Positions 2,874-13,882 of a stretch of 20,672 bases of DNA are shown here, in pieces. A program made the position numbers and the translations under genes. The stretch comes from Oculatellaceae cyanobacterium bins.114 (GTDB lineage Bacteria; Cyanobacteriota; Cyanobacteriia; Elainellales; Elainellaceae), in the NCBI GenBank assembly GCA_033764315.1, contig JANRJA010000189.1, positions 1-20,672 of the forward strand, in the 5' to 3' direction. The notes below the pieces were generated by a model. It saw only the letters and a program-made list of their open reading frames with translations. It was not told the DNA's origin and did no database searches. Each line of letters begins with the position of its first letter. The first letter of the stretch is position 1.

Positions 2874-4433
2874 ATGTCCATTCAGCGTCCAGATATCGTG
2901 TTTTTGGTGCTTGACACACAGAGAAGCGATCGCCTCTCCTGTTACGGCTATCCCAAACCCACCTCTCCAAACCTGGATGCTTTTGCGGCGGATGCAACTC
3001 TGTTCCGCAATGCCATTTCTGCTGCCCAGTGGACGGTGCCCTCCCACGCTTCTATGTTTACAGGGCTTTATCCCTCAGCTCACCAGGTGTTGCAGTCTTA
3101 TTCAGTCCTTCCTGCTCACATTAACACTTTGGCTGAACGCTTGAGCGCAGGAGGCTACTTTACAGCTGGGTTCTGTAACAATCCGCTGGTAGGAGTCATT
3201 AATAATGGATTGCGCCGAGGGTTTTACAGCTTCCTCAACTACAGTGGCTTACTCACTTCTCGACCCAATCAGGCGGGCATTCCCTCTGGGTTGCTCGATC
3301 GCTATCGTCAATTGTTTAAACGAATGCTGGCGGGTGCGCTCGATAAGGTGCAAGATTCGTTTGCTCGCTCAGAGTTATTACTGGCCTTTTCGTTTACGCC
3401 GCTGATGGTGCCGATTTGGCAAACAGCTCTTAGTTTTAAGGGCAACACCACTAAGTCCCTCGATGATGCTGCCCGGTTGTTGATCGACCGACGTGGACTT
3501 GAAGGCGATCGCCCCATTTTTACCTTCATTAACTTGATGGGCACTCACATGCCGTATCATCCACCCCGTTCCTATGTCGAGCGGTTTGCTCCGCATGTGT
3601 TGCGTGACAAAGAATCTCAGCATTATTTGCGACGGTTTAACGGAGACATCTATGGCTGGCTAGCTCCTTTAGCCGGGGCACTCGATGAGCGGCAAAAAGC
3701 CACCCTAGATGGCATGTATGACGCAGAAGTGGCCTATCAAGATGACCAGATTGGCTTGTTTTTAGAACGATTACGTCAGAGTGGTGCCCTCGATAATACG
3801 ATGGTCGTGGTCTGCTCTGATCATGGTGAGCACTTAGGTGAAAAACACTTTATTGGACACTCCATTTCGCTTTACAACGAGTTAGTGCAAGTCCCCCTGA
3901 TCATCCGTGACCCTGGTAACAATTTGACTCAGGGCACAACCCGAACCGATGTGGTTTCTACACGCTGTCTGTTTCACACCCTGTTAGCGGCTGCCGGATT
4001 AGCAGATGACTTAGAGGAAATGTCATCGCTAGCGCGTCCACCGGCAAACGAGTTAGAAGGGCATGTGTTTTCAGAGGCGATTCCTCCGCAAAATGTGGTC
4101 AGCTTGCTCTATAAACGGCAACCAGAGCTAGTGCTCTCTCATGCTTGTGACCAACCCCGACGAGCAATTTGGTTGGGCAATCATAAGTTAATTGAAACGG
4201 GAGACACGTCAGCCGCCGCCACCAATCGTTTAGAACTCTTTGATTTCCTCAATGATCCTTATGAGAATATGAACTTGACCGACATTCTGCCTGAGAATGT
4301 TGAAGTCTTGCAGGAATGTTTGCAGCTTTTTGCAGGGCAATCCACAGCCGTGATGTCAGACGAACGAGCACCCGGGTTTGATGATCCAGAAGTGCAACGT
4401 CGCCTTAGAGATTTAGGCTATCTAGAGGATTAG
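2874..4433 (+). CDS. Sulfatase-like hydrolase/transferase (alkaline phosphatase superfamily) with Thr at the nucleophile position
   Basis: Motifs VLDTQRSD, TSPNLD, WTVPSHASMFTG, THMPY, YDAEVAYQD and SDHGE, plus the C-terminal RLRDLGYLE tail. Confidence 0.9.
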   Translation: MSIQRPDIVFLVLDTQRSDRLSCYGYPKPTSPNLDAFAADATLFRNAISAAQWTVPSHASMFTGLYPSAHQVLQSYSVLPAHINTLAERLSAGGYFTAGFCNNPLVGVINNGLRRGFYSFLNYSGLLTSRPNQAGIPSGLLDRYRQLFKRMLAGALDKVQDSFARSELLLAFSFTPLMVPIWQTALSFKGNTTKSLDDAARLLIDRRGLEGDRPIFTFINLMGTHMPYHPPRSYVERFAPHVLRDKESQHYLRRFNGDIYGWLAPLAGALDERQKATLDGMYDAEVAYQDDQIGLFLERLRQSGALDNTMVVVCSDHGEHLGEKHFIGHSISLYNELVQVPLIIRDPGNNLTQGTTRTDVVSTRCLFHTLLAAAGLADDLEEMSSLARPPANELEGHVFSEAIPPQNVVSLLYKRQPELVLSHACDQPRRAIWLGNHKLIETGDTSAAATNRLELFDFLNDPYENMNLTDILPENVEVLQECLQLFAGQSTAVMSDERAPGFDDPEVQRRLRDLGYLED

Positions 4434-4481
4434 TAATGCAGAAAGGCTGAAAGATAAAGGCTGAAGGATAAAAACTAGCCT

Positions 4482-4575
4482 TACAGCAATTTTCATTTGT
4501 GTATACCACATCAACGTGTTGTATCGCCTGAATCCCAGTTATTTGCTGTGTGGCACTCGTCTGAAAACCGCTGTA
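4482..4575. mobile_element. About 90-bp MITE-like element with terminal inverted repeats, flanked by TA
   Basis: Left end TACAGCAATTTTCA versus reverse complement of right end TACAGCGGTTTTCA (12/14 identical), with further inner pairing (CCACA/TGTGG). TA on both sides fits IS630/Tc1-type target duplication. Confidence 0.65.
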
Positions 4576-4654
4576 AATTGATTTTGATCCTTCATTCTGT
4601 GTCTCTGATCGTTTCTTTCTATCCCTTATCCTTGATATTTTGATCCTTAATTAT

Positions 4655-5539
4655 ATGTATCCTCCCGTTGATCCCACCATCGAAATTAATTTGGGTTTTA
4701 GAACCCTTGAGCTGCACTGGTATGGGCTGTTGATGGCGACAGCTGTAATTGTTGGCTCCCAAATTGCCAGTTCTGAGGTGGAACGCCGAGGACAAAAGGG
4801 CGATGACTTCTGGGATATGTTGATCTGGGTACTCATCCCCGGTTTTATTGGGGCGCGTCTCTATTACGTCTTTATTCAGTCACCCCGAGGAGAGGGTGGT
4901 TTAATGAGTTATTTAGAGCACCCAGCGACAATCTTTAAAGTTTGGGAGGGTGGCATTCACATCTTTGGGGGCTTTATCTTTGGAGCGATCGCCCTTTACC
5001 TCTATACCCGCATTAAGCGATTGCCAGGGTTAGTGTTTCTCGATGCGATCGCGCTGGGTTTACCTCTAGCTCAAGCCATTGGGCGTTGGGGCAACTTCAT
5101 TAACCAGGAGTTATACGGACCTCCGACAACCCTCCCGTGGGGCTTGAAAATTGACTGCGATCGCCGCCTTCCTCCCTATAACAATGGTTGTGATCCCAGA
5201 CTTCCTGTTGATCCCAATACAGAGGTTTATCCCCTCAGTACTCACTTTCAACCCCTCTTTCTCTACGAATCGCTCTGGAACTTTGTAGGGTTTGGACTGA
5301 TCTTTTGGATCTCCCGCCGCTTCAAACACCAACTCAAAGATGGCGATCTGACTCTGCTCTATCTAATCTGGTATCCACTAGGACGGTTCTTCATCGAGTT
5401 TCTCCGCACCGACTCCTGGTTCTTCCCTGGCACTCCCTTCAACGTCGTTCACATTCTCAGTGCGATCGCCATTCTCGCTGCCGGAATTGGGCTATACGTT
5501 CGTCATCAAGATAGTGCACCACAACAGCTAAAAGAGTAG
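4655..5539 (+). CDS. lgt: Prolipoprotein diacylglyceryl transferase (Lgt family), atypical
   Basis: Motifs HWYG, GARLYYV, QAIGRWGNFINQELYG, LPWG, LYES and GRFFIEFLRTD, with several hydrophobic TM segments. ATG 4655 is preferred over TTG 4640. Confidence 0.9.
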   Translation: MYPPVDPTIEINLGFRTLELHWYGLLMATAVIVGSQIASSEVERRGQKGDDFWDMLIWVLIPGFIGARLYYVFIQSPRGEGGLMSYLEHPATIFKVWEGGIHIFGGFIFGAIALYLYTRIKRLPGLVFLDAIALGLPLAQAIGRWGNFINQELYGPPTTLPWGLKIDCDRRLPPYNNGCDPRLPVDPNTEVYPLSTHFQPLFLYESLWNFVGFGLIFWISRRFKHQLKDGDLTLLYLIWYPLGRFFIEFLRTDSWFFPGTPFNVVHILSAIAILAAGIGLYVRHQDSAPQQLKE

Positions 5540-5556
5540 ATAGGGGGAATAGGTAA

Positions 5557-5732
5557 AGTTTTGAGTTTTGAGTTTTGAGTTTTGAGTTAGTGGTTCAAGG
5601 CAAGGTCATTCAAAACTCATCCTTCATCATTCATCACTCTCCTTCCTTCACCACTCTCCTTAATGAATTTTGAGTTAGTGGTTCAAGGCAAGGTCATTCA
5701 AAACTCATCCTTCATCATTCATCACTCTCCTT
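5557..5732. repeat. STRR-type heptamer array plus an exact 65-bp direct duplication
   Basis: (AGTTTTG)x4 at 5557-5584. Identical 65-mers at 5580-5644 and 5668-5732. The internal TCAAAACTCA is complementary to the heptamer array. Confidence 0.9.
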
Positions 5733-5763
5733 ACACTCTCCCATTCTTTATTCCCAACTCCCT

Positions 5764-7155
5764 ATGTCTCCCTCTCCACGCCTCATCATCATTGGTCTAG
5801 ACTGTATGGAACCCTCCCTCGTCTTTGACCAGTGGCGATCTGATCTCCCTAACCTCTCTCGCCTGATGGCAACAGGTAGCTATGGACGGTTAGAGAGCAG
5901 CATTCCGGCGATCACCGTACCTGCTTGGAGTTGCATGATGAGTGGACGTGACCCAGGCGAGTTAGGAATCTATGGCTTTCGCAACCGCGCCGATCGCACC
6001 TATGGCAAAATGGCGATCGCAGATGGTCGGGCAGTCAAATTTCCTCGATTATGGGATGTGTTAGGTGAAGCAGGTTGGACGGTAGCAGTTCTTAGCGTTC
6101 CGGGGACATCTCCCCCTTATGCCGTCAATGGCTCCCTGGTGTCTTGCTTTTTGACCCCCAACACAGATACTCCTTACACCCACCCACCCCAACTGGCGGC
6201 GCAGATCAACGCCTGGATGCCAGACTTTTTACTAGACGTTCCCCATTTTCGCTCTGACGAAAAAGAACGCATCCTCAAAAACATTTACAGCCTATGCGAT
6301 CAACGTTTCACCCTGGCTGAGAAGCTATTGGCTCAGGACTCGCCCGATTTTTTGATGCTGGTGGATATGGGGGTTGATCGCATCCATCACTCCTTCTGGA
6401 AGCCAATGGATCCCCGGCATCCGCAATATGAACCGAATTCGCCTTATGCCAACGCCATCCACGACTATTACTGCTATGTTGATCGGCGCGTTGGGGAGTT
6501 ACTAGCTCAATGCAGCGATGAAACGGCTGTTTTAGTTGTCTCAGACCACGGAGCACGACCGCTCATGGGCGGCATTTGTGTCAACGAGTGGCTGATCAAG
6601 GAGGGCTATCTCACCTTAAAGGCAACCCCCAGTGAGCCTAAATCACTAGACGAAGTCGAAGTTGACTGGAGCCGCACCAAAGCCTGGGGCGCAGGTGGCT
6701 ATTACGGACGCATCTTCCTAAATGTGCAGGGACGAGAACCACAGGGCACGATCCCCATTGCGGAGTATGAAAAGGAGCGATCGCAACTCGCAGAAAAACT
6801 GGTCACAATCCCTGATCCCAATGGAAATCCATTGAATAACCGAGTCTTTAAACCCCAGCAGATTTATCAGAAAGTGCGGGGTGTCGCTCCTGATTTAATC
6901 GCCTACTTTGAAGAACTGGCATGGCGATCGGTGGGCACTGTCGGCAGCGGCACACTGCATACCCTCGATAACGACACTGGCCCCGATGATGCCAACCATG
7001 CTCCCTTTGGACTGATGATCTTCCACGACCCCAAAAATCCTAAAAATGGGCAACGTCTCGAAGGAGCACAGCTCTATGACATCTTGCCGACGCTCCTCTC
7101 ACGCTATGAAATCAAGCCTCCTGTTGGGTTGCGTGGCAAAGTCCTACCTGTATAA
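5764..7155 (+). CDS. Alkaline-phosphatase-superfamily type I phosphodiesterase / nucleotide pyrophosphatase (COG3379-like)
   Basis: Motifs IIGLDCM, PAITVPAWSCMMSG (Thr nucleophile), DRIHHSFW, VSDHG, VDWSRTKAW and the C-terminal NH. No evident signal peptide. Confidence 0.88.
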   Translation: MSPSPRLIIIGLDCMEPSLVFDQWRSDLPNLSRLMATGSYGRLESSIPAITVPAWSCMMSGRDPGELGIYGFRNRADRTYGKMAIADGRAVKFPRLWDVLGEAGWTVAVLSVPGTSPPYAVNGSLVSCFLTPNTDTPYTHPPQLAAQINAWMPDFLLDVPHFRSDEKERILKNIYSLCDQRFTLAEKLLAQDSPDFLMLVDMGVDRIHHSFWKPMDPRHPQYEPNSPYANAIHDYYCYVDRRVGELLAQCSDETAVLVVSDHGARPLMGGICVNEWLIKEGYLTLKATPSEPKSLDEVEVDWSRTKAWGAGGYYGRIFLNVQGREPQGTIPIAEYEKERSQLAEKLVTIPDPNGNPLNNRVFKPQQIYQKVRGVAPDLIAYFEELAWRSVGTVGSGTLHTLDNDTGPDDANHAPFGLMIFHDPKNPKNGQRLEGAQLYDILPTLLSRYEIKPPVGLRGKVLPV

Positions 7156-7596
7156 GTGGGATTAGAGTTTTGCCGAAGCTCCAACATCTTTAACCCATCA
7201 AGGTTTTACCCACTCCAACGAGTAGAACCAAAATCGGGCTTATGGTGGCGATTGTGCTGCAAACCCCATTTTCTCTAAGGATCACCTAAATCACCCGATT
7301 GGATGAGTCCAGGGAGTGAGGTGCGATCGCCCTCTAAATCGTATTGTTAAAAATATCCTCAAACTTCACCGTGTTGAATCTGGAATTTAACAGCCCTCTG
7401 TTGTAGTTGGAAAGAGAATATTGGCAGGTCATCTGGGAATAATTTGCATAAGCTTAATCACTGATGACGTTATGTTTCAAGAGTATGTAAAGTCTTACCC
7501 TAAGTTAAACAGGGATGCACAGTCCCTCTAGTAGAGTGAGATCAGTATAGATATTCAACTTATTTTTAATTGCTTATTGTGTGTGAGGTAAGGTTC

Positions 7597-8139
7597 ATGA
7601 CGCTACATTCTTTGACTCGTATCTTCCCATCGCGGACTTCTTTATTTCGTTCATTAGAAAAGCCATTAACAGGTCTGTTTGTAGCTATTGGTTTAATGGG
7701 TGTTGCTGCTCCACAATCTGCCACCCACGCCACCGAAGCACCCAGTTCTAGAAACTCTGTTGCGACTCAAGTAGCTCAAGGATCTGCGCAGACATTGCCC
7801 GATGGGGTTTACCTCTACGGTCAAGCGACTGAACCCGAGCAAATCGGCTCCGCTTACATGGTTTTTGAAGTTAGCCAAAACCAAGTGGTTGGGGCGTTCT
7901 ATATGCCCTACTCCTCCTTTGACTGTTTTCGGGGAGAGTTTCAGAGCGATCGCCTTGCTCTTAATGTAGTTGATAGCTATGAGCAAACTGTAAATCCTTA
8001 TTCCATTGCCTTGAACTCTGATGGTTCGGTCGCATCCACTGGAGAGGCGATCGCGCCGATAGGGTTAGAAGGGTTTAACCGGATGCAAACAGTGAGCGAT
8101 AACGATCGCCGCATTCTCGCCACCTGCCAAGCCGATTAG
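7597..8139 (+). CDS. Conserved cyanobacterial hypothetical protein, probably exported
   Basis: SD-like GAGGTAAGG precedes ATG 7597. A hydrophobic signal-like segment (LTGLFVAIGLMGVAA) is followed by a DGVYLYGQ..PEQIGSAYMVFEV domain with two Cys. Confidence 0.75.
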   Translation: MTLHSLTRIFPSRTSLFRSLEKPLTGLFVAIGLMGVAAPQSATHATEAPSSRNSVATQVAQGSAQTLPDGVYLYGQATEPEQIGSAYMVFEVSQNQVVGAFYMPYSSFDCFRGEFQSDRLALNVVDSYEQTVNPYSIALNSDGSVASTGEAIAPIGLEGFNRMQTVSDNDRRILATCQAD

Positions 8140-8170
8140 TAGATCAGGTAGAAGCCGATCGTCATTTAAT

Positions 8171-8194
8171 CAGGCTTGAACGTTTCTTGAGCCT
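8171..8194 (+). terminator. Possible hairpin/terminator after the hypothetical gene
   Basis: AGGCTTGA...TTGAGCCT stem with G-U pairs; no strong U-tract. Confidence 0.3.
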
Positions 8195-8304
8195 AATGCG
8201 GTAGTTAGCTCTGCATTGTCATGGTAGTGAGGTGCTTGATGCTCTGCTACCGCTACAATGCATTACGATAGGACAATCCTCACCTAAACTACGAGGCTCC
8301 TCCT

Positions 8305-8595
8305 ATGCAGCGCGACACAGTTCTTTTAACTCTCAAGCAACATCAAACTGCGTTAAAAAATTTAGGTGTGCGATCGCTGGCATTGTTTGGTTCTGTAGCG
8401 CGAGATGAAGCAACCCCTACCAGTGATATTGATATCTTGGTTGAATTTGAACCTCCAATCACTTTCGATCGCTACATGGATGTCAAGTTTTACCTTGAGG
8501 ATCATTTAGAAAGCAAAGTCGATTTAGTTAGTTGGAAATCACTCAAACCTCAAATCCGGACATTGGTAGAACAAGAGGCGATTCATGTCGCGTAA
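8305..8595 (+). CDS. mntA: Minimal nucleotidyltransferase (MNT) antitoxin of a HEPN-MNT (type VII) toxin-antitoxin pair
   Basis: 96 aa with LFGSVARDE...SDIDILVEF (GSX10DXD) and KVDLV. It overlaps the start of a DUF86-like ORF. Confidence 0.9.
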   Translation: MQRDTVLLTLKQHQTALKNLGVRSLALFGSVARDEATPTSDIDILVEFEPPITFDRYMDVKFYLEDHLESKVDLVSWKSLKPQIRTLVEQEAIHVA

Positions 8596-8731
8596 TTTTC
8601 AGCTTTATCTAGCCGATATTCAAATGGCCTGTGAGAAGGTATTGCGCTATATCGATGGGATGAATTTTGAACAATTTGTAGAAGACGATCGCACATTTGA
8701 TGCGGTGATTATGACTGTTGTAGAAGATTGA
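8585..8731 (+). pseudogene. hepT: Truncated HEPN/DUF86 (HepT-like) toxin
   Basis: Manual translation: MSRNFQLYLADIQMACEKVLRYIDGMNFEQFVEDDRTFDAVI-MTVVED*. DUF86-like up to DAVI (8710), then unrelated; the RX4H RNase motif is absent. It overlaps mntA by 11 nt. Confidence 0.85.
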
Positions 8732-8762
8732 GATACGATGTCATTATGGGGAATATTGACAT
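8709..8762 (-). other. 17-codon ORF behind a perfect Shine-Dalgarno (small protein or truncated gene start)
   Basis: TAAGGAGGT (8778-8770), a 7-nt spacer, then ATG 8762 giving MSIFPIMTSYLNLLQQS*. Confidence 0.35.
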
Positions 8763-9030
8763 AATGAATACCTCCTTATTTAGAACCTTAAGTGGGATTA
8801 GGGTTCGCCAGTCAAAGCTCTCCTTACTTAAAGTAGTTCAGTTACTATTGGTCTTTCTGAAGAAAAATAGCTGGTTCATCATTAAAGTTACAATCTTCTG
8901 CTACAAACTCCGTTGCAACAGCATTCAATTGAGTAAGATTAGGAAGGTTTCAGCGACTTAATTTTGAATTTTCAGAAAGTCGATTTAAAGTAATTATGAT
9001 TACACTAGATGAATTACTAAATAACTTTAT

Positions 9031-9827
9031 TTAGTAACGCTTTGGTAGTGTTCTAAAATACAATAAATCATCAAAAGAAAAGTTGTCTTTGATAAACTTA
9101 GATAAAATTTGACGAGCTGATTGAAGAAGCTTAATGTGTTGATCAAGAAATTCAACAAGCTGAGTTATATGTTCTTTATCGTCATCTGAGAATTTGGCAT
9201 TAAAAGTAGGCTTCTGTGTCAGAGAAAATAGTAAATTTTTGGGCCATTCATCAGAAGTTTCATGAGTTAGTGTTCGTAGTCTCACATCTGTAGGATCTAA
9301 TTTATCCAAACCCTGCACGCTTTGGTAAAGCTCTTCAAGATTAGCACTAAGCAACTCCTTGGATGAAGCTGAATAATTAATAGAAAAAACTGACAAAGAA
9401 TCTGTGAAATTTTAAAGCTGTTTTCGCCCTCCAGAGTTGATAACTCTCGAAGGAGAGAAGCAATTGTACTTTTTCCTACTCGTATGCCCCAAAGCATTTT
9501 ATGTAGCTCCTCATCATACAATGAAATAATTTGTCGTAAGTCATTGAAGGATTTGAAGAAGATTGTAGAGGCGTTATCGATATCTTTTGAAATTCTTACA
9601 ATTGGTACACGATATAGTACTCTTTTATTTTCGGAGGCGAGTCCATTTTGAGATTGATAAATGAACTCTATTGCTGCTTGTTCAAGTTGTTCTAGTGACT
9701 CATACAAACTAAGAAAAGACTTTGCTGCTTGCTTGCGCTGATCAAGTGCTAAATCTAATTTCTTCTCAGCAATTTTTGTTATGGAAAATTCAACAAGTTT
9801 CCCAAGAAATCCAAGCCAACCAAGCAT
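9031..9827 (-). pseudogene. Frameshifted hypothetical gene in the AT-rich island (two overlapping ORFs)
   Basis: SD AGGAG precedes ATG 9827 (MLGWLGFLGK...). ORFs 9297-9869 and 9031-9396 overlap by 100 nt in different frames, and the first turns implausible after about 9410. Confidence 0.65.
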
Positions 9828-10042
9828 AAAATTACTCCTATACTCTATAACCTTGTTTACCCCAAACATAATCTAGTGATTGCGCTTAGGAGTTGCTATG
9901 AATCTTTAGCTCACTACTGATGGTTTTCCTCAGCCCTCTTTAAGACGACTGGTAGATTGTGCCTAAAATTTCCATAGCCCAATCGTTCCCATAGCCTCGT
10001 TTCTTTCGATGGTTGTACACATCTCAAAGCTCTAAATATAAC

Positions 10043-10285
10043 TCAAGCTACCTCTAATACCCACCTAAAAATGAATAGAACTGCCACTTCAAAGGACGAG
10101 TAGATAGCAATATTATTAAACGGAAAATTTCTTGCTAACGACTCCCTTTGAAACTTAGTCTGGAGATTGCCGAATTTATTATCCTCCTTGAAAATTAAAT
10201 TACGGTTTTCTTGATAATATTTGCGTCTAGGCAACCAGGTCAAAGTTTTCTGCATTGTTTCAGACTCAAACTGTAATACAGACAC
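10043..10285 (-). CDS. Short hypothetical ORF, possibly a remnant
   Basis: 80-aa ORF directly downstream of the SbcC-like gene in AT-rich DNA; no recognisable motif. Confidence 0.25.
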   Translation of the reverse strand: MSVLQFESETMQKTLTWLPRRKYYQENRNLIFKEDNKFGNLQTKFQRESLARNFPFNNIAIYSSFEVAVLFIFRWVLEVA

Positions 10286-10340
10286 ATGGAGAGCAAATCA
10301 TTGGGGAATAGTTTTGAAAGGTTATACTCTGCTTTCTAAG

Positions 10341-13100
10341 CTACTCTCGCTGTACGAGGATGACGTTCTCGGTCACTTTTTCAAAGGTGTCGTCATGGCT
10401 AATAACGAACAGTTGACGGAAGGTTCTGATATTGGCGATCGCCTCTGCTAAACTCTCTCGTCGGGGGCGATCCATATTCGTGGTGGGTTCGTCAAAGAAG
10501 GCGATATCGATATCGGCTAGAACGCGCAAGAGGGCAAGACGCACAGCCAGAGCAGCACACATTTGCTCTCCGCCAGAGAGGTTAATAAACCGTCGAGTGT
10601 GTGCTCCTTCTTGCACAATGATTTCGTAGTCACGAGTCCATTCCAGGGCAACATTGGGGCGATTCATTAGCTCGCGGAATAGCTTGTCTGCCTCGTGAGA
10701 AATGTTTTGCACATAGCGTTCGGTAATCCGAGGGCCAGCTTTTTTGTAGGCATCCCGCGCAAATTTGATGAACCGTTTATTGCGCTCAGCTTGCTTTAAG
10801 TCAATCTGGGCGCGATCGCGTTCTTGGGCGATCGCTTGCAGGTGAGTCAACTGTTGCTCTAGCTCGGTTAACAGTTTGCGTTGTTGAGGCAAGCTGCCTT
10901 GAATGCGATCGACCTGACTGCGAGTTTCAGCATACAAAGATTCCACCTGTTGCCAATGTTGCGGGTCATAGTTTTGCTGAAGCCGTTCGTACTCAACTTT
11001 TAGGGTCTGTTGATGAGCTTGTAATTGCTGCACTTGGGCGATCGCAGTTTGCAATTCGGTGATCCGCTGCGGCAGGCTTTCTGCATCCTTCTGATATTGC
11101 ACATAGGTGAGATGACTGGGTTGATACATCTGACGCTGGTGCTTGTGTTGCTCAATGTGCCCATCCAGGTCAGCAAATTGCTCAAGTTGTTGATCTAAAT
11201 CGGCAATGCTTTGTTGAATCGAGACTTGCACCTGTTGCAGTTGAGCAAATTGTGTTTGAATCTGGGCTTGTTGTTGCAATTGCTGGGTCAAGAGGTGCTG
11301 ACGACTACGGGGATCACCCAATTGGGTGAGTTGCTGAGCTACGTGCGATCGCCGTTCTTGCCACCCTGCCTCCGTTGAGAGCACTCCTTCGAGCTGTTGC
11401 AGGCGAGTTTGCAGTTGGGCTATATCTTCGTTGAGTTGTGTCTGTTGCTCTAGTCTGGTCTCTAAGCTGTCATACTCGGCGCGATGGCGGTAAGCAGTTT
11501 CGAGCTTAAGCTTGAGTTCATAGGACTGCTGCTTTAACTTGGCAACTGAGGTTTGCTCTGACAAATCTGACAGAATTGCCTCCACAGCCTGTAACAAGTC
11601 AGTATTTAGATCAACCCCTGCTTGAATTGCGGCTAATGCTGAATCAACAGAAGCCGTCGCCAATAACGGCATACTGGCTTGCATTTGCTGCAAAATGGCT
11701 AACGCTTTCTCAGCTTGAGTTTGATGGCGATCGCGCTTGTCTTGAGCAACCTGCACCAGTTGTCGTAAATCAGCTTCAAATTGCTTTGCCGCTTCGATGC
11801 GGCTCAACTGCTCTTGCAGGCGATCGCGTTGTTGTTCAAATCCTTCAATTTGTTTAACCGTGGCCGCCAACCCCTGAAGTCGTTCAATCTCCTGAGTTAG
11901 CCGAGTCACATCCGTTTTGGCTTTCGTCAGTTGTTTACCAAGTGTTTGATGCTCCAATCGGGCCGCTTGTAGTTGTTGCAGATGATCGGCGATCGCAGAT
12001 TGCTGCTGTTCTAACTCAACTTGCTGTTGCATTAGGGGTTGCAATTGAGTGATCTCAGTCTCTGCCTTTTGCAACCCCTCTAACTGCACCGTCAATCGAG
12101 TCAACTCGGTGTGCCGCTCTGTCAGTAGCTTTTGCTGTTTTTCCCGTTGTTTTAGCAAAGTTTGGCGTTGTTTCGTTTGGCGATCGCATTCTTGTAAGGC
12201 TGCCTCTGCCTGCAAAAATGTTTGATATCCCACTTGGTTGGTGTTACACACTTCAACTGCTTGTTTTGCCCGCTCAACCGCCTCTTCTAAAACGCGGTTC
12301 GTCTGTTGCTGACCTGCAATTTGAGTTGTGCCTTGCTGCAACTGCGCCTCTAGTTGCTGAATCTGTTGAGCTTGTGCTGCCAGTGCTGTTTTTTCGGCTT
12401 GCAGTTTTGCTAATGCAGTCTGTAGGGTCTGAAGTTTTGTTTCATCCTGCGTGATCTCTGTAGACAAGTCAGCACATCGCTGTCGTGTCGTTTCCCAATT
12501 TGATAAGTCTTCACTGTACTTAGCGATCGCCTGTTCTAGTTTCTCAACTTGAGCTTCACTATAGGTCTTGAGCGAACCCAACTTGGCATAAACCTGCTTG
12601 TATTCTTCAACTTTTAGAACGGCATCAAATACTTTTTTACGGTTCTCTGTTGTTTCTAAAAAAGCAGCCGTGAAAGTTCCCTGAGGGACTCCAATTGTGT
12701 TAGCAAAAAGCTTGCCTAAATCGGTTCCTGGTGCCACCCCTAAGTGTTGCCGCAACCAGGGCATGACCTCTTCATCGATATGCTTGTAATCGAGTCGTTG
12801 ATCTAACTGAGGATCATAAATGGTGTAACCCTTTGTCGTGCACCGTTGAACACTATAGGTGCGCCCATCTCGGCTTGACACAAACGCCACACTGGCTTGA
12901 GCACTATTGGCTCCATTGCGAATGATGTCTTCATTTTTGTAGGCACCTCGATGGTTAAACAACGTCCAGGCGATCGCCTCTAAAATGCTGGTTTTGCCCG
13001 CCCCGTTTTCTCCACAAATGGCATTAGTGCCGAGTTGGAAGGTAAAGTGGCGATCGCTATGAGACTTGAAGTTCTTGAGGGTGACAGAGAGAATTTCCAT
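10341..13100 (-). CDS. sbcC: Rad50/SbcC-like SMC-family ATPase
   Basis: N-terminal LKNFKSH, Walker A GENGAGKT, Q-loop VPQGTF, a long Gln/Leu-rich coiled coil, signature LSGGE, Walker B FFDEPT and the ISH switch. Confidence 0.88.
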   Translation of the reverse strand: MEILSVTLKNFKSHSDRHFTFQLGTNAICGENGAGKTSILEAIAWTLFNHRGAYKNEDIIRNGANSAQASVAFVSSRDGRTYSVQRCTTKGYTIYDPQLDQRLDYKHIDEEVMPWLRQHLGVAPGTDLGKLFANTIGVPQGTFTAAFLETTENRKKVFDAVLKVEEYKQVYAKLGSLKTYSEAQVEKLEQAIAKYSEDLSNWETTRQRCADLSTEITQDETKLQTLQTALAKLQAEKTALAAQAQQIQQLEAQLQQGTTQIAGQQQTNRVLEEAVERAKQAVEVCNTNQVGYQTFLQAEAALQECDRQTKQRQTLLKQREKQQKLLTERHTELTRLTVQLEGLQKAETEITQLQPLMQQQVELEQQQSAIADHLQQLQAARLEHQTLGKQLTKAKTDVTRLTQEIERLQGLAATVKQIEGFEQQRDRLQEQLSRIEAAKQFEADLRQLVQVAQDKRDRHQTQAEKALAILQQMQASMPLLATASVDSALAAIQAGVDLNTDLLQAVEAILSDLSEQTSVAKLKQQSYELKLKLETAYRHRAEYDSLETRLEQQTQLNEDIAQLQTRLQQLEGVLSTEAGWQERRSHVAQQLTQLGDPRSRQHLLTQQLQQQAQIQTQFAQLQQVQVSIQQSIADLDQQLEQFADLDGHIEQHKHQRQMYQPSHLTYVQYQKDAESLPQRITELQTAIAQVQQLQAHQQTLKVEYERLQQNYDPQHWQQVESLYAETRSQVDRIQGSLPQQRKLLTELEQQLTHLQAIAQERDRAQIDLKQAERNKRFIKFARDAYKKAGPRITERYVQNISHEADKLFRELMNRPNVALEWTRDYEIIVQEGAHTRRFINLSGGEQMCAALAVRLALLRVLADIDIAFFDEPTTNMDRPRRESLAEAIANIRTFRQLFVISHDDTFEKVTENVILVQRE

Positions 13101-13702: not shown

Positions 13703-13882
13703 GATTATTTGCAGGGATATCCAGGGGACATTTCAGGAGTATTGAGGGGATATGCAGGGACATTCCAGGGGTATTGAGGGGACGCGATTAATCGCGTCCC
13801 CCCGGAAATAATCATCCCCTCGGAAATAATCATCCCCCTAGAAATAATGTTCCTCTGCAAATAATCACCCCCGTTAATAATC
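13703..13882. repeat. REP-like perfect palindrome flanked by short tandem repeats between convergent genes
   Basis: 24-bp perfect palindrome GGGGACGCGATTAATCGCGTCCCC (13778-13801). Degenerate 10-11-nt (C/G)AGGG repeats lie to the left and 16-19-nt GAAATAATCATCCCC repeats to the right. An outer 12-bp inverted repeat sits at 13703-13714/13855-13866. Confidence 0.85.

Follow-up and report, generated by a model that had tools for sequence, protein, structure and literature searches.

A gene for a threonine-type sulfatase-like enzyme recurs directly upstream of lgt in Cyanobacteria and Chloroflexota

Described relatives of the three proteins

Bacterial lipoprotein biogenesis has its committed step in the reaction of Lgt, an enzyme that is regarded as stand-alone and is discussed as a target for antibiotics. 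Here, a stretch of 20,672 nucleotides from Oculatellaceae cyanobacterium bins.114 (GenBank assembly GCA_033764315.1, contig JANRJA010000189.1, positions 1 to 20,672 of the forward strand; hereafter the window) was analysed, in which lgt lies between genes for two predicted soluble enzymes. One is sulfatase-like, the other resembles type I phosphodiesterases/nucleotide pyrophosphatases (NPP), and both carry Thr at the nucleophile position, as a first-pass annotation made from the sequence alone had proposed. The sulfatase-like gene recurs directly upstream of lgt in other genomes of two phyla. This conserved, lgt-linked Thr-enzyme gene pair is the new element of the present work, since a full-text literature search (subscription journals and supplements lying outside its scope) yielded no paper that describes this combination of genes, a cytoplasmic sulfatase-like enzyme of Thr type or the neighbours of cyanobacterial lgt, and nothing relevant on COG3379 or on the fate of glycerol-1-phosphate. 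The search likewise found no described pathway of such composition, in line with the first-pass annotation.

The window's lgt (4655-5539, + strand) encodes 294 residues from ATG 4655, or 299 from the alternative TTG 4640; the former was retained because homologues begin at MYPPVDP. Its product belongs to the same family as E. coli Lgt (5AZB/5AZC) and resembles it in length, in several hydrophobic segments and in the motifs G-R-x-G-N-F-I-N-x-E-L-x-G and Y-x-x-x-R-x-x-x-E-x-x-R, at an identity of about 30% or less. It matched PF01790 at 2.1e-71 (240.5 bits, cut-off 24.9) and TIGR00544 at 186 bits, above the curated cut-off of 118.9, while E. coli Lgt (5azb) was found at 9.1e-13 with the signatures GRWGNFINQELYG and YPLGRFFIEFLR aligned. 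The E. coli residues Y26, R143, N146, E151, G154, Y235, R239, E243 and R246 are all matched, and the first eight of them are invariant in 25 cyanobacterial Lgts. By contrast, Phe stands in the column of E. coli H103 and Gln in that of H196, with a His two residues upstream of each. The histidines are thus altered relative to E. coli, as had been noticed at first pass. This arrangement (GGIHIFGG) is however invariant in the 25 cyanobacterial Lgts, and His occupies the H103 column, as in the HGGL motif that is absent from the window Lgt, in only 2 of 81 aligned Lgt rows. H103 is essential in E. coli Lgt according to the available sections of PMC4728403, and essential residues including Y26, R143, N146, G154, R239 and H103 are listed in those of PMC13251419, where other species are also said to have Y, W or F in place of H103, so that its conservation is not absolute. 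Hence, a His at this position does not define the family. The 119 other listed Lgt matches are 65-80% identical to the window protein and are named Lgt wherever any name is given. Because this type is annotated in cyanobacterial genomes and the catalytic apparatus is kept, we read the window protein as an ordinary housekeeping Lgt of cyanobacterial type, for which diacylglyceryl transfer is predicted. The earlier view of an atypical, repurposed paralogue is not supported, given the score above the TIGR00544 cut-off, the retention of all essential residues except H103 and a His pattern common to its cyanobacterial relatives.

Another difference from E. coli Lgt lies in the periplasmic head domain, where 11 additional residues, two of them Cys, are inserted (about nt 5183-5215). 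This insert and a 3-residue N-terminal one are missing from 24 other cyanobacterial Lgts and from the nearest homologue, which is 80% identical. Fourteen nucleotides of the longer insert (5203-5216) repeat the 5' end of lgt (4663-4676) at 93% identity, with PVDP encoded in both, which suggests a small internal duplication.

The sulfatase-like protein (2874-4433, + strand, 519 residues) matched PF00884 at 2.7e-46 in a Pfam scan, in which PF01663 also matched its residues 9-74. Its 24 NCBIfam matches all fall far under their cut-offs, the best reaching 145 bits against 481. The closest folds are those of formylglycine sulfatases and phosphonate monoester hydrolases (4UPH, 7OZ8, 6G5Z, 9KOQ; TM-score about 0.6), which also include the closest solved sequences (1.6e-26). 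Indeed, its AlphaFold2 (AF2) model, with a predicted local distance difference test (pLDDT) of 78.6 and a predicted TM-score (pTM) of 0.84, was assigned to the sulfatase fold by Foldseek with probability 1.00 and TM-scores of about 0.6 to 4uph, 7stt and 6g5z. The N-terminal Asp, the D-H pair and the C-terminal subdomain are common to these enzymes and to the window protein. The difference lies in the active site, where the sulfatases hold a Cys- or Ser-derived formylglycine and an Arg: in the alignment to solved sulfatases, T54 (QW-T-VPSH) falls on the formylglycine column and H58 on the Arg column, so that T-V-P-S-H stands in place of C/S-x-P-x-R. In the family alignment of Cyanobacteria and Chloroflexota, the T54 column holds Thr in 27 of 28 rows and Ser in one (L008), and D14, P56, S57, H58, H225, D316, H317 and H329 are invariant; D14, D316 and H317 are presumed to be metal ligands. 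A manganese-dependent arylsulfatase (NF052527, PDB 9KOQ) was rejected as a model for the protein, as it uses Cys61/formylglycine according to the available text of PMC12421950.

Thr is the rule in a much larger branch of the family. A search of a library of 1.8 billion proteins gave 10,790 cluster representatives at E<=1e-30, and among 153 aligned domain rows drawn from the best 150 of them, window included, 145 have Thr in the nucleophile column, 6 have Ser and 2 a gap. The motif of this branch, W-T-x-P-x-H-x-S-x-F-T-G, resembles L-T-F-P-N-H-Y-T-L-V-T-G of the Xanthomonas (Xac) NPP. To our knowledge, all characterised Thr members of the superfamily (NPP, PhnA, LtaS, EptA) handle phosphoesters. 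Since both flanking enzymes are Thr-type members of the superfamily, they are best predicted to act on phosphoesters and not on sulfate esters; the first-pass annotation had noted that members of this type hydrolyse or transfer phosphodiester groups. Proteins of the branch are routinely mis-annotated as "sulfatase" or "arylsulfatase A-like".

In place of the sulfate-binding Lys/His region of sulfatases, the window protein has a conserved insert (about residues 100-210) that is specific to its family and poorly modelled. Residues 100-190 include many invariant positions (FCNNPLVGV..NG.RRGF..NY.G; P180, W182, F188-K189-G190), yet their pLDDT is only 51-64. Hydrophobicity along the protein peaks within this region, at residues 168-186 (mean 1.53, just under the threshold of 1.6). 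The C-terminal tail (4380-4433; RLRDLGYLED here), modelled at a pLDDT below 50, follows a pattern kept from Cyanobacteria to Chloroflexota, (D/E)DP.(V/L)..RL(R/K).LGY(L/I)E, and may be a docking or sorting motif.

LtaS, EptA and OpgB use or modify phospholipid head groups, and LtaS and OpgB use phosphatidylglycerol (PG). LtaS, EptA (MCR) and OpgB have in common with the sulfatase-like protein a Thr nucleophile on a sulfatase-type fold. They differ by an N-terminal polytopic membrane domain and an extracytoplasmic catalytic domain, whereas the window protein begins with its catalytic domain and has neither a transmembrane domain nor an export signal. It gave weak, partial NCBIfam matches to their models (15-47 bits against cut-offs of 404-1250), and none of the three appears among its 49 listed fold matches. 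Related proteins with a membrane domain nevertheless exist: all 31 long relatives examined, which carry a polytopic N-terminal domain, have at least three hydrophobic 19-mers. The LGT domain (PF01790) was found in 0 of 45 long relatives. In a FastTree phylogeny of 134 rows, every lgt-linked member falls in a 52-row soluble subfamily (local support 100) made up of short proteins only, and the long, membrane-anchored forms all lie outside it.

The NPP-like protein (5764-7155, + strand, 463 residues) matched PF01663 over its whole length (1.4e-48, 166.7 bits, cut-off 23). With NPP/ENPP and the phosphonoacetate hydrolase PhnA (2GSN, 7N1S, 3SZY, ENPP1/3/6) it has in common this family, a Thr nucleophile, a D-H pair and the fold, its best structural matches being ENPP1/3/6, Xac NPP and PhnA (TM-score 0.5-0.64). 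A single-sequence search of solved structures gave no match at E<=0.01; a profile of 26 orthologues placed T51 on the nucleophile Thr of PhnA and Xac NPP with an E-value of only about 1e-3. D13, T51, D216, H219, D261, H262 and H412 are invariant in the 26 sequences. D13, D216, H219, D261, H262 and H412 are candidate ligands of a two-zinc site. This marginal profile match aligns D216 and D261-H262 with ligands of NPP, places H219 one column away and does not extend to H412. The AF2 model has a pLDDT of 79.4, which drops below 50 at residues 47-92, the active-site loop with T51 included. The described enzymes are secreted or ecto-enzymes, whereas the window protein is predicted to be cytoplasmic and has about 80 extra residues.

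The predicted location of the two enzymes rests on their N-termini and hydrophobicity profiles. Both open reading frames (ORFs) use the earliest start codon that follows a stop, which leaves 5-7 residues ahead of the first strand with its metal-binding Asp; that of the sulfatase-like protein begins six residues before this strand and allows no upstream extension. No signal peptide was found in either protein, in agreement with the first-pass annotation, and neither has a 19-residue Kyte-Doolittle window with a mean of at least 1.6. Both are therefore predicted, from their sequences, to be cytoplasmic, active Thr-nucleophile metalloenzymes, a location in which the sulfatase-like protein would also differ from the formylglycine sulfatases.

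The gene pair across genomes and its descent

A conserved upstream partner gene is not described for E. coli lgt, unlike what is found here. The neighbourhoods of 80 Lgt loci, no two of them from one assembly, were inspected; these are the matches listed by one genome scan with an Lgt alignment (600 stretches listed), so that the true number is at least 80. Hidden Markov models built from homologues were run on all ORFs of these loci, and the neighbours of 12 loci were Pfam-scanned. In 12 of the 80 (L001, L004, L005, L007, L008, L009, L014, L015, L031, L046, L053 and L063), the gene immediately upstream of lgt, and co-oriented with it, is an orthologue of the sulfatase-like gene (440-992 bits, confirmed by Pfam). 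Such recurrence marks the adjacency as more than chance. A weak match of 68 bits on the opposite strand in L071 was rejected as an orthologue. Six loci have a gap of 2-36 bp between the two genes and five a gap of 106-213 bp, and the gap widens to 740 bp in L007. In this last case, a PIN-domain gene is inserted (7540-7974), which parallels the repeat DNA found at the same junction of the window. The outer neighbours of the pair vary from locus to locus and include secA, rlmL, pfkB, a TIR-NACHT gene, a fumarase gene, recF and guaB-purB, so that the pair alone is constant.

The three-gene unit described in the first-pass annotation is only partly supported: the sulfatase-like/lgt pair is conserved, a fixed third member is not. 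Only 3 of the 80 listed loci have the NPP-like gene after lgt (L001, L005 and L014, with gaps of 14, 3 and -4 bp), and the gene was not found in the available downstream DNA (1.1 to 8 kb) of the other cyanobacterial-type loci. Among the seven Cyanobacteria-labelled loci with the window's type of Lgt (L001-L007), four have the pair; L003 lacks it and has a YbjQ-like gene upstream, and L002 and L006 begin at lgt, so that their upstream neighbour is not judgeable. The sizes of the contigs give a similar, though indirect, picture. For 17 of the 119 listed Lgt matches, the size of the longest contig exactly equals that of a listed sulfatase-like match, 11 of these 17 contigs being at most 12.3 kb and the smallest 2,754 bp; by the same test, 12 of the 119 pair with an NPP-like match and 5 with both. 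In the same loci, the sulfatase-like and NPP-like proteins show identities of 58-79% and 65-78%, compared with 57-72% for Lgt, and are thus conserved to about the same degree as Lgt or more. Overall, the pair spans the cyanobacterial-type clade and at least three Chloroflexota lineages at 40-79% protein identity.

According to a maximum-likelihood tree of 81 Lgts, all 13 linked Lgts, the window's included, fall in one 26-row group, which makes up one side of a branch (ultrafast bootstrap, UFBoot, 85; SH-like approximate likelihood ratio test, SH-aLRT, 95). This group comprises a cyanobacterial-type clade of 11 rows (100/100) and a Chloroflexota clade of 15 rows, and it coincides exactly with the rows in which the residue two positions ahead of the H103 column is His (23) or Asn (3). 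Three of its rows are not judgeable for the neighbour (L002, L006, L039); the pair was found in 13 of the 23 testable ones and in 0 of the 55 Lgts outside the group, six of which have less than 1.1 kb of upstream DNA. The 13 sulfatase-like proteins group in their own tree as the Lgts do in theirs. The pair was therefore inherited, or moved, as a unit.

Possible meaning of the linkage

The reading that we favour, with a rough probability of 0.4, is that Lgt and the soluble Thr enzyme or enzymes belong to an old inherited operon with a functional tie to the PG/glycerophosphate pool. In such a scheme, Lgt would move the diacylglyceryl group of PG onto the lipobox Cys of exported prolipoproteins at the periplasmic or lumenal face, releasing glycerol-1-phosphate. 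The sulfatase-like enzyme, probably co-transcribed with lgt, would work through a phospho-threonine intermediate, with phosphoesters instead of sulfate esters as the groups hydrolysed or transferred; the NPP-like Thr enzyme would be a third operon gene in a subset of cyanobacterial-type genomes, the window included. The soluble enzymes would then have as their substrate, on the cytoplasmic side of the membrane, a phosphoester of the pool used by Lgt, with phosphatidylglycerophosphate, lyso-PG, glycerophosphoglycerol or re-imported glycerol phosphate as candidates. A functional tie is favoured because the pair survives in unrelated neighbourhoods of two phyla, with tight spacing and co-phylogeny.

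Several observations weigh against this reading. According to the available sections of PMC4728403, the active site of Lgt faces the periplasm, glycerol-1-phosphate exits there and the cytoplasmic surface of the protein is small; since the two enzymes have no export signal, they cannot touch the Lgt reaction directly. No result gave any hint of a substrate. The sample is small and skewed, with 8 of the 80 loci labelled Cyanobacteria and most Chloroflexota. Ten of the 23 testable rows of the Lgt group lack the neighbour (L003, L011, L016, L017, L020, L032, L050, L051, L054 and L076), which, together with the scarcity of the NPP-like gene, makes the linkage dispensable. All linked Lgts form one clade, so that one ancestral arrangement followed by inheritance could explain the adjacency. 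Besides, three members of the cyanobacterial-type clade (L008, L009 and L014) lie on contigs of metagenome-assembled genomes (MAGs) labelled Thermoflexales, Acidobacteriota and Roseiflexus, labels that may reflect a binning error or gene transfer. The HIP1 octamer GCGATCGC, whose 47 copies in the 20.7-kb window indicate the cyanobacterial character of the latter, occurs 0-1 times in these three loci and only twice in the true cyanobacterial locus L001.

Plain inherited synteny, in which unrelated housekeeping genes are kept together by inertia or shared expression, is a strong rival and a quite possible explanation of the data. The single clade, the 10 losses and the third gene beside lgt in so few loci all suit it, as does the separation of a periplasmic active site from cytoplasmic enzymes, which speaks against direct coupling (PMC4728403, in the same sections). 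The PIN-domain gene of L007 and the repeat DNA of the window were inserted between the genes without obvious harm. The E. coli lgt-thyA operon offers an example of lgt kept with the gene of an unrelated soluble enzyme, as could be the case here, and we know of no link between thymidylate synthase and lipoproteins. The present partner is however a phosphoesterase-like enzyme and the pairing extends across two phyla. Synteny alone also accounts poorly for a pair that persists where all surrounding genes differ, in at least three Chloroflexota lineages as well as the cyanobacterial-type clade, with gaps often of 2-36 bp and mirrored gene trees. A closer physical coupling, in which the soluble Thr enzyme would dock on the cytoplasmic face of Lgt and the PG head group would be handled jointly in the manner of LtaS, EptA or OpgB, appears very unlikely. 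It would fit the polytopic N-terminal domains of all 31 long relatives, the tight spacing in six loci and the behaviour of residues 100-190, the most conserved region, poorly modelled as a partner- or lipid-binding lid might be and containing the most hydrophobic stretch of the protein. On the other hand, none of the 45 long relatives has an LGT domain, the membrane-anchored forms lie outside the soluble subfamily, and the cytoplasmic surface of Lgt is small, with its chemistry across the membrane (PMC4728403, sections available). Two runs of complex prediction for Lgt with the sulfatase-like protein both scored 0.00 (mark 0.32, no controls), a result that speaks neither for nor against binding.

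The first-pass annotation had proposed that a repurposed Lgt paralogue lipidates a non-standard acceptor while phospho- or sulfo-esters of an envelope component are processed by the two flanking enzymes. Some features would agree with paralogy: the shifted His/Asn does mark a distinct Lgt clade (26 of 81 rows), about 1,300 genomes are reported to have two lgt copies (PMC13251419, available sections), and the genera Brevefilum and Anaerolinea are each represented by species within the 26-row group and by others beyond it, hence Chloroflexota may carry two Lgt types. Paralogy would also suit a Nostochopsis MAG (L080, 13 HIP1 sites) that has a different, Firmicute-like Lgt (7677-8780) with His at the H103 column. 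This gene is surrounded by IS605/TnpB, group II intron reverse transcriptase and topoisomerase genes, and it, unlike the window's type, therefore looks like an accessory, mobile copy. As a separate observation, two different cyanobacterial-type Lgts, each 67% identical to that of the window, are both labelled as Oscillatoria sp. CS-180 (P0063 and P0108, on contigs of 109,905 and 59,975 bp), hence some cyanobacteria hold two copies of this type. The window's type is the one annotated in cyanobacteria, with 119 listed matches at 65-80% identity. Essential residues other than H103 are kept in it, and Synechocystis, compared by description only, is reported in the available text of PMC8038367 to have one Lgt-like protein (sll1187) and yet lipidated proteins. 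No result supports a non-standard acceptor or the envelope-facing role given to both enzymes, which have no export signals, while the active site of Lgt is periplasmic (PMC4728403, as available). We regard this proposal as very improbable. Least probable of all is a role in sulfur metabolism, in which the sulfatase-like protein would hydrolyse or transfer sulfate esters in the cytoplasm and its adjacency to lgt would be incidental. The overall fold and the best sequence matches are indeed those of sulfatases; a sulfotransferase gene directly precedes the sulfatase-like gene in L015 (5768-6379), and a fused ATP-sulfurylase/APS-kinase gene directly follows the NPP-like gene in L014 (10266-11999). 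Such neighbours occur in only 2 of the 13 linked loci, however, and the formylglycine motif is replaced by T-V-P-S-H, with Thr at this position in nearly all related domain rows. All matched solved sulfatases use formylglycine, and C61 of one of them, EfAS, is essential according to the available text of PMC12421950.

The favoured reading, an old operon tied to the PG/glycerophosphate pool, could be taken further, although we consider this extension unlikely. The whole Lgt clade, i.e., the cyanobacterial-type Lgts and part of the Anaerolineae, marked by the shifted His/Asn, would have a dedicated cytoplasmic Thr-type partner, and lipidation would be a two-component process in these organisms. 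The soluble enzyme might make, edit or salvage a phosphoglycerol-bearing donor or by-product, and the NPP-like enzyme might complete the pathway in some cyanobacteria. If true, this would be the first accessory factor of Lgt. More generally, if the partner gene of one Lgt clade has a functional role, it would point to an unrecognised requirement of lipoprotein or PG metabolism in cyanobacteria and Chloroflexota, organisms with phospholipid-poor membranes. In cyanobacteria, PG is reported as the only major phospholipid. Such a role would also give, through the soluble subfamily, a first functional handle on the very large W-T-x-P-x-H branch of the sulfatase family. If the link is synteny alone, the window holds an ordinary lgt between two conserved hypothetical enzymes.

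Gene layout and DNA setting

The three co-oriented genes described at first pass were confirmed as + strand ORFs with the expected Pfam families at 2874-4433, 4640/4655-5539 and 5764-7155, and the closest homologues of the window genes are those of filamentous cyanobacteria. Upstream of them, menD is read from the - strand with a likely start at 2771, its TIGR00173 match beginning at ORF residue 104. Between menD and the divergently read sulfatase-like gene lie 102 bp (2772-2873), the presumed promoter region of the gene unit. It holds two copies of the direct repeat CTTGTTACCCTA, which could be a regulatory site, and the promoter scan called no sigma-70-like site on its + strand.

The spacers between the three genes consist of repeat DNA, as the first-pass annotation had noted. 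The first (4434-4654, 221 bp) contains a 14-nt tandem repeat, a 25-nt direct repeat and an imperfect long-range inverted repeat, and its predicted fold is not significant (z -1.77 against shuffles). The second (5540-5763, 224 bp) contains AGTTTTG repeated 4.6 times, followed by two copies of a hairpin-forming 69-nt unit (5576-5644 and 5664-5732, 99% identical, 88 nt apart); its fold has a z of -4.25, equalled by 1 of 200 shuffles. The additional label of miniature inverted-repeat transposable element (MITE) was not confirmed. With respect to the features of such elements (dispersed copies, terminal inverted repeats and target-site duplications), only local duplications were seen in the 20.7-kb window; no further copy of the repeats of either spacer was found within it, and an Rfam scan of the whole window matched no family. 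The promoter and terminator scan called no site in either spacer, a result that says little, either way, for cyanobacterial promoters. The best explanation of this layout is that repeat DNA was inserted in the window into both junctions of an operon that is tightly packed in relatives.

A lipobox scan of the window ORFs for Lgt substrates returned only spurious antisense ORFs inside menD. Downstream of the three genes, an MntA-like nucleotidyltransferase antitoxin gene (8305-8595, + strand) was recognised by NF047752 (49.6 bits, cut-off 60) and by PADLOC PDC-S09 (3.4e-31); no HepT-like partner ORF was seen in the next 430 bp. The region 8500-13100 comprises a stretch of low GC content (0.35) with two unassignable - strand ORFs (9031-9396 and 9297-9869) and, next to this stretch, the gene of a 919-residue SMC/Rad50-like ATPase (10341-13100, - strand), which matched LmuB of PADLOC at 2.5e-33; the region may be a Lamassu-like defence island. 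Further along, the tract between two genes contains a tandem-repeat block (13707-13882; periods of 18-36 nt).

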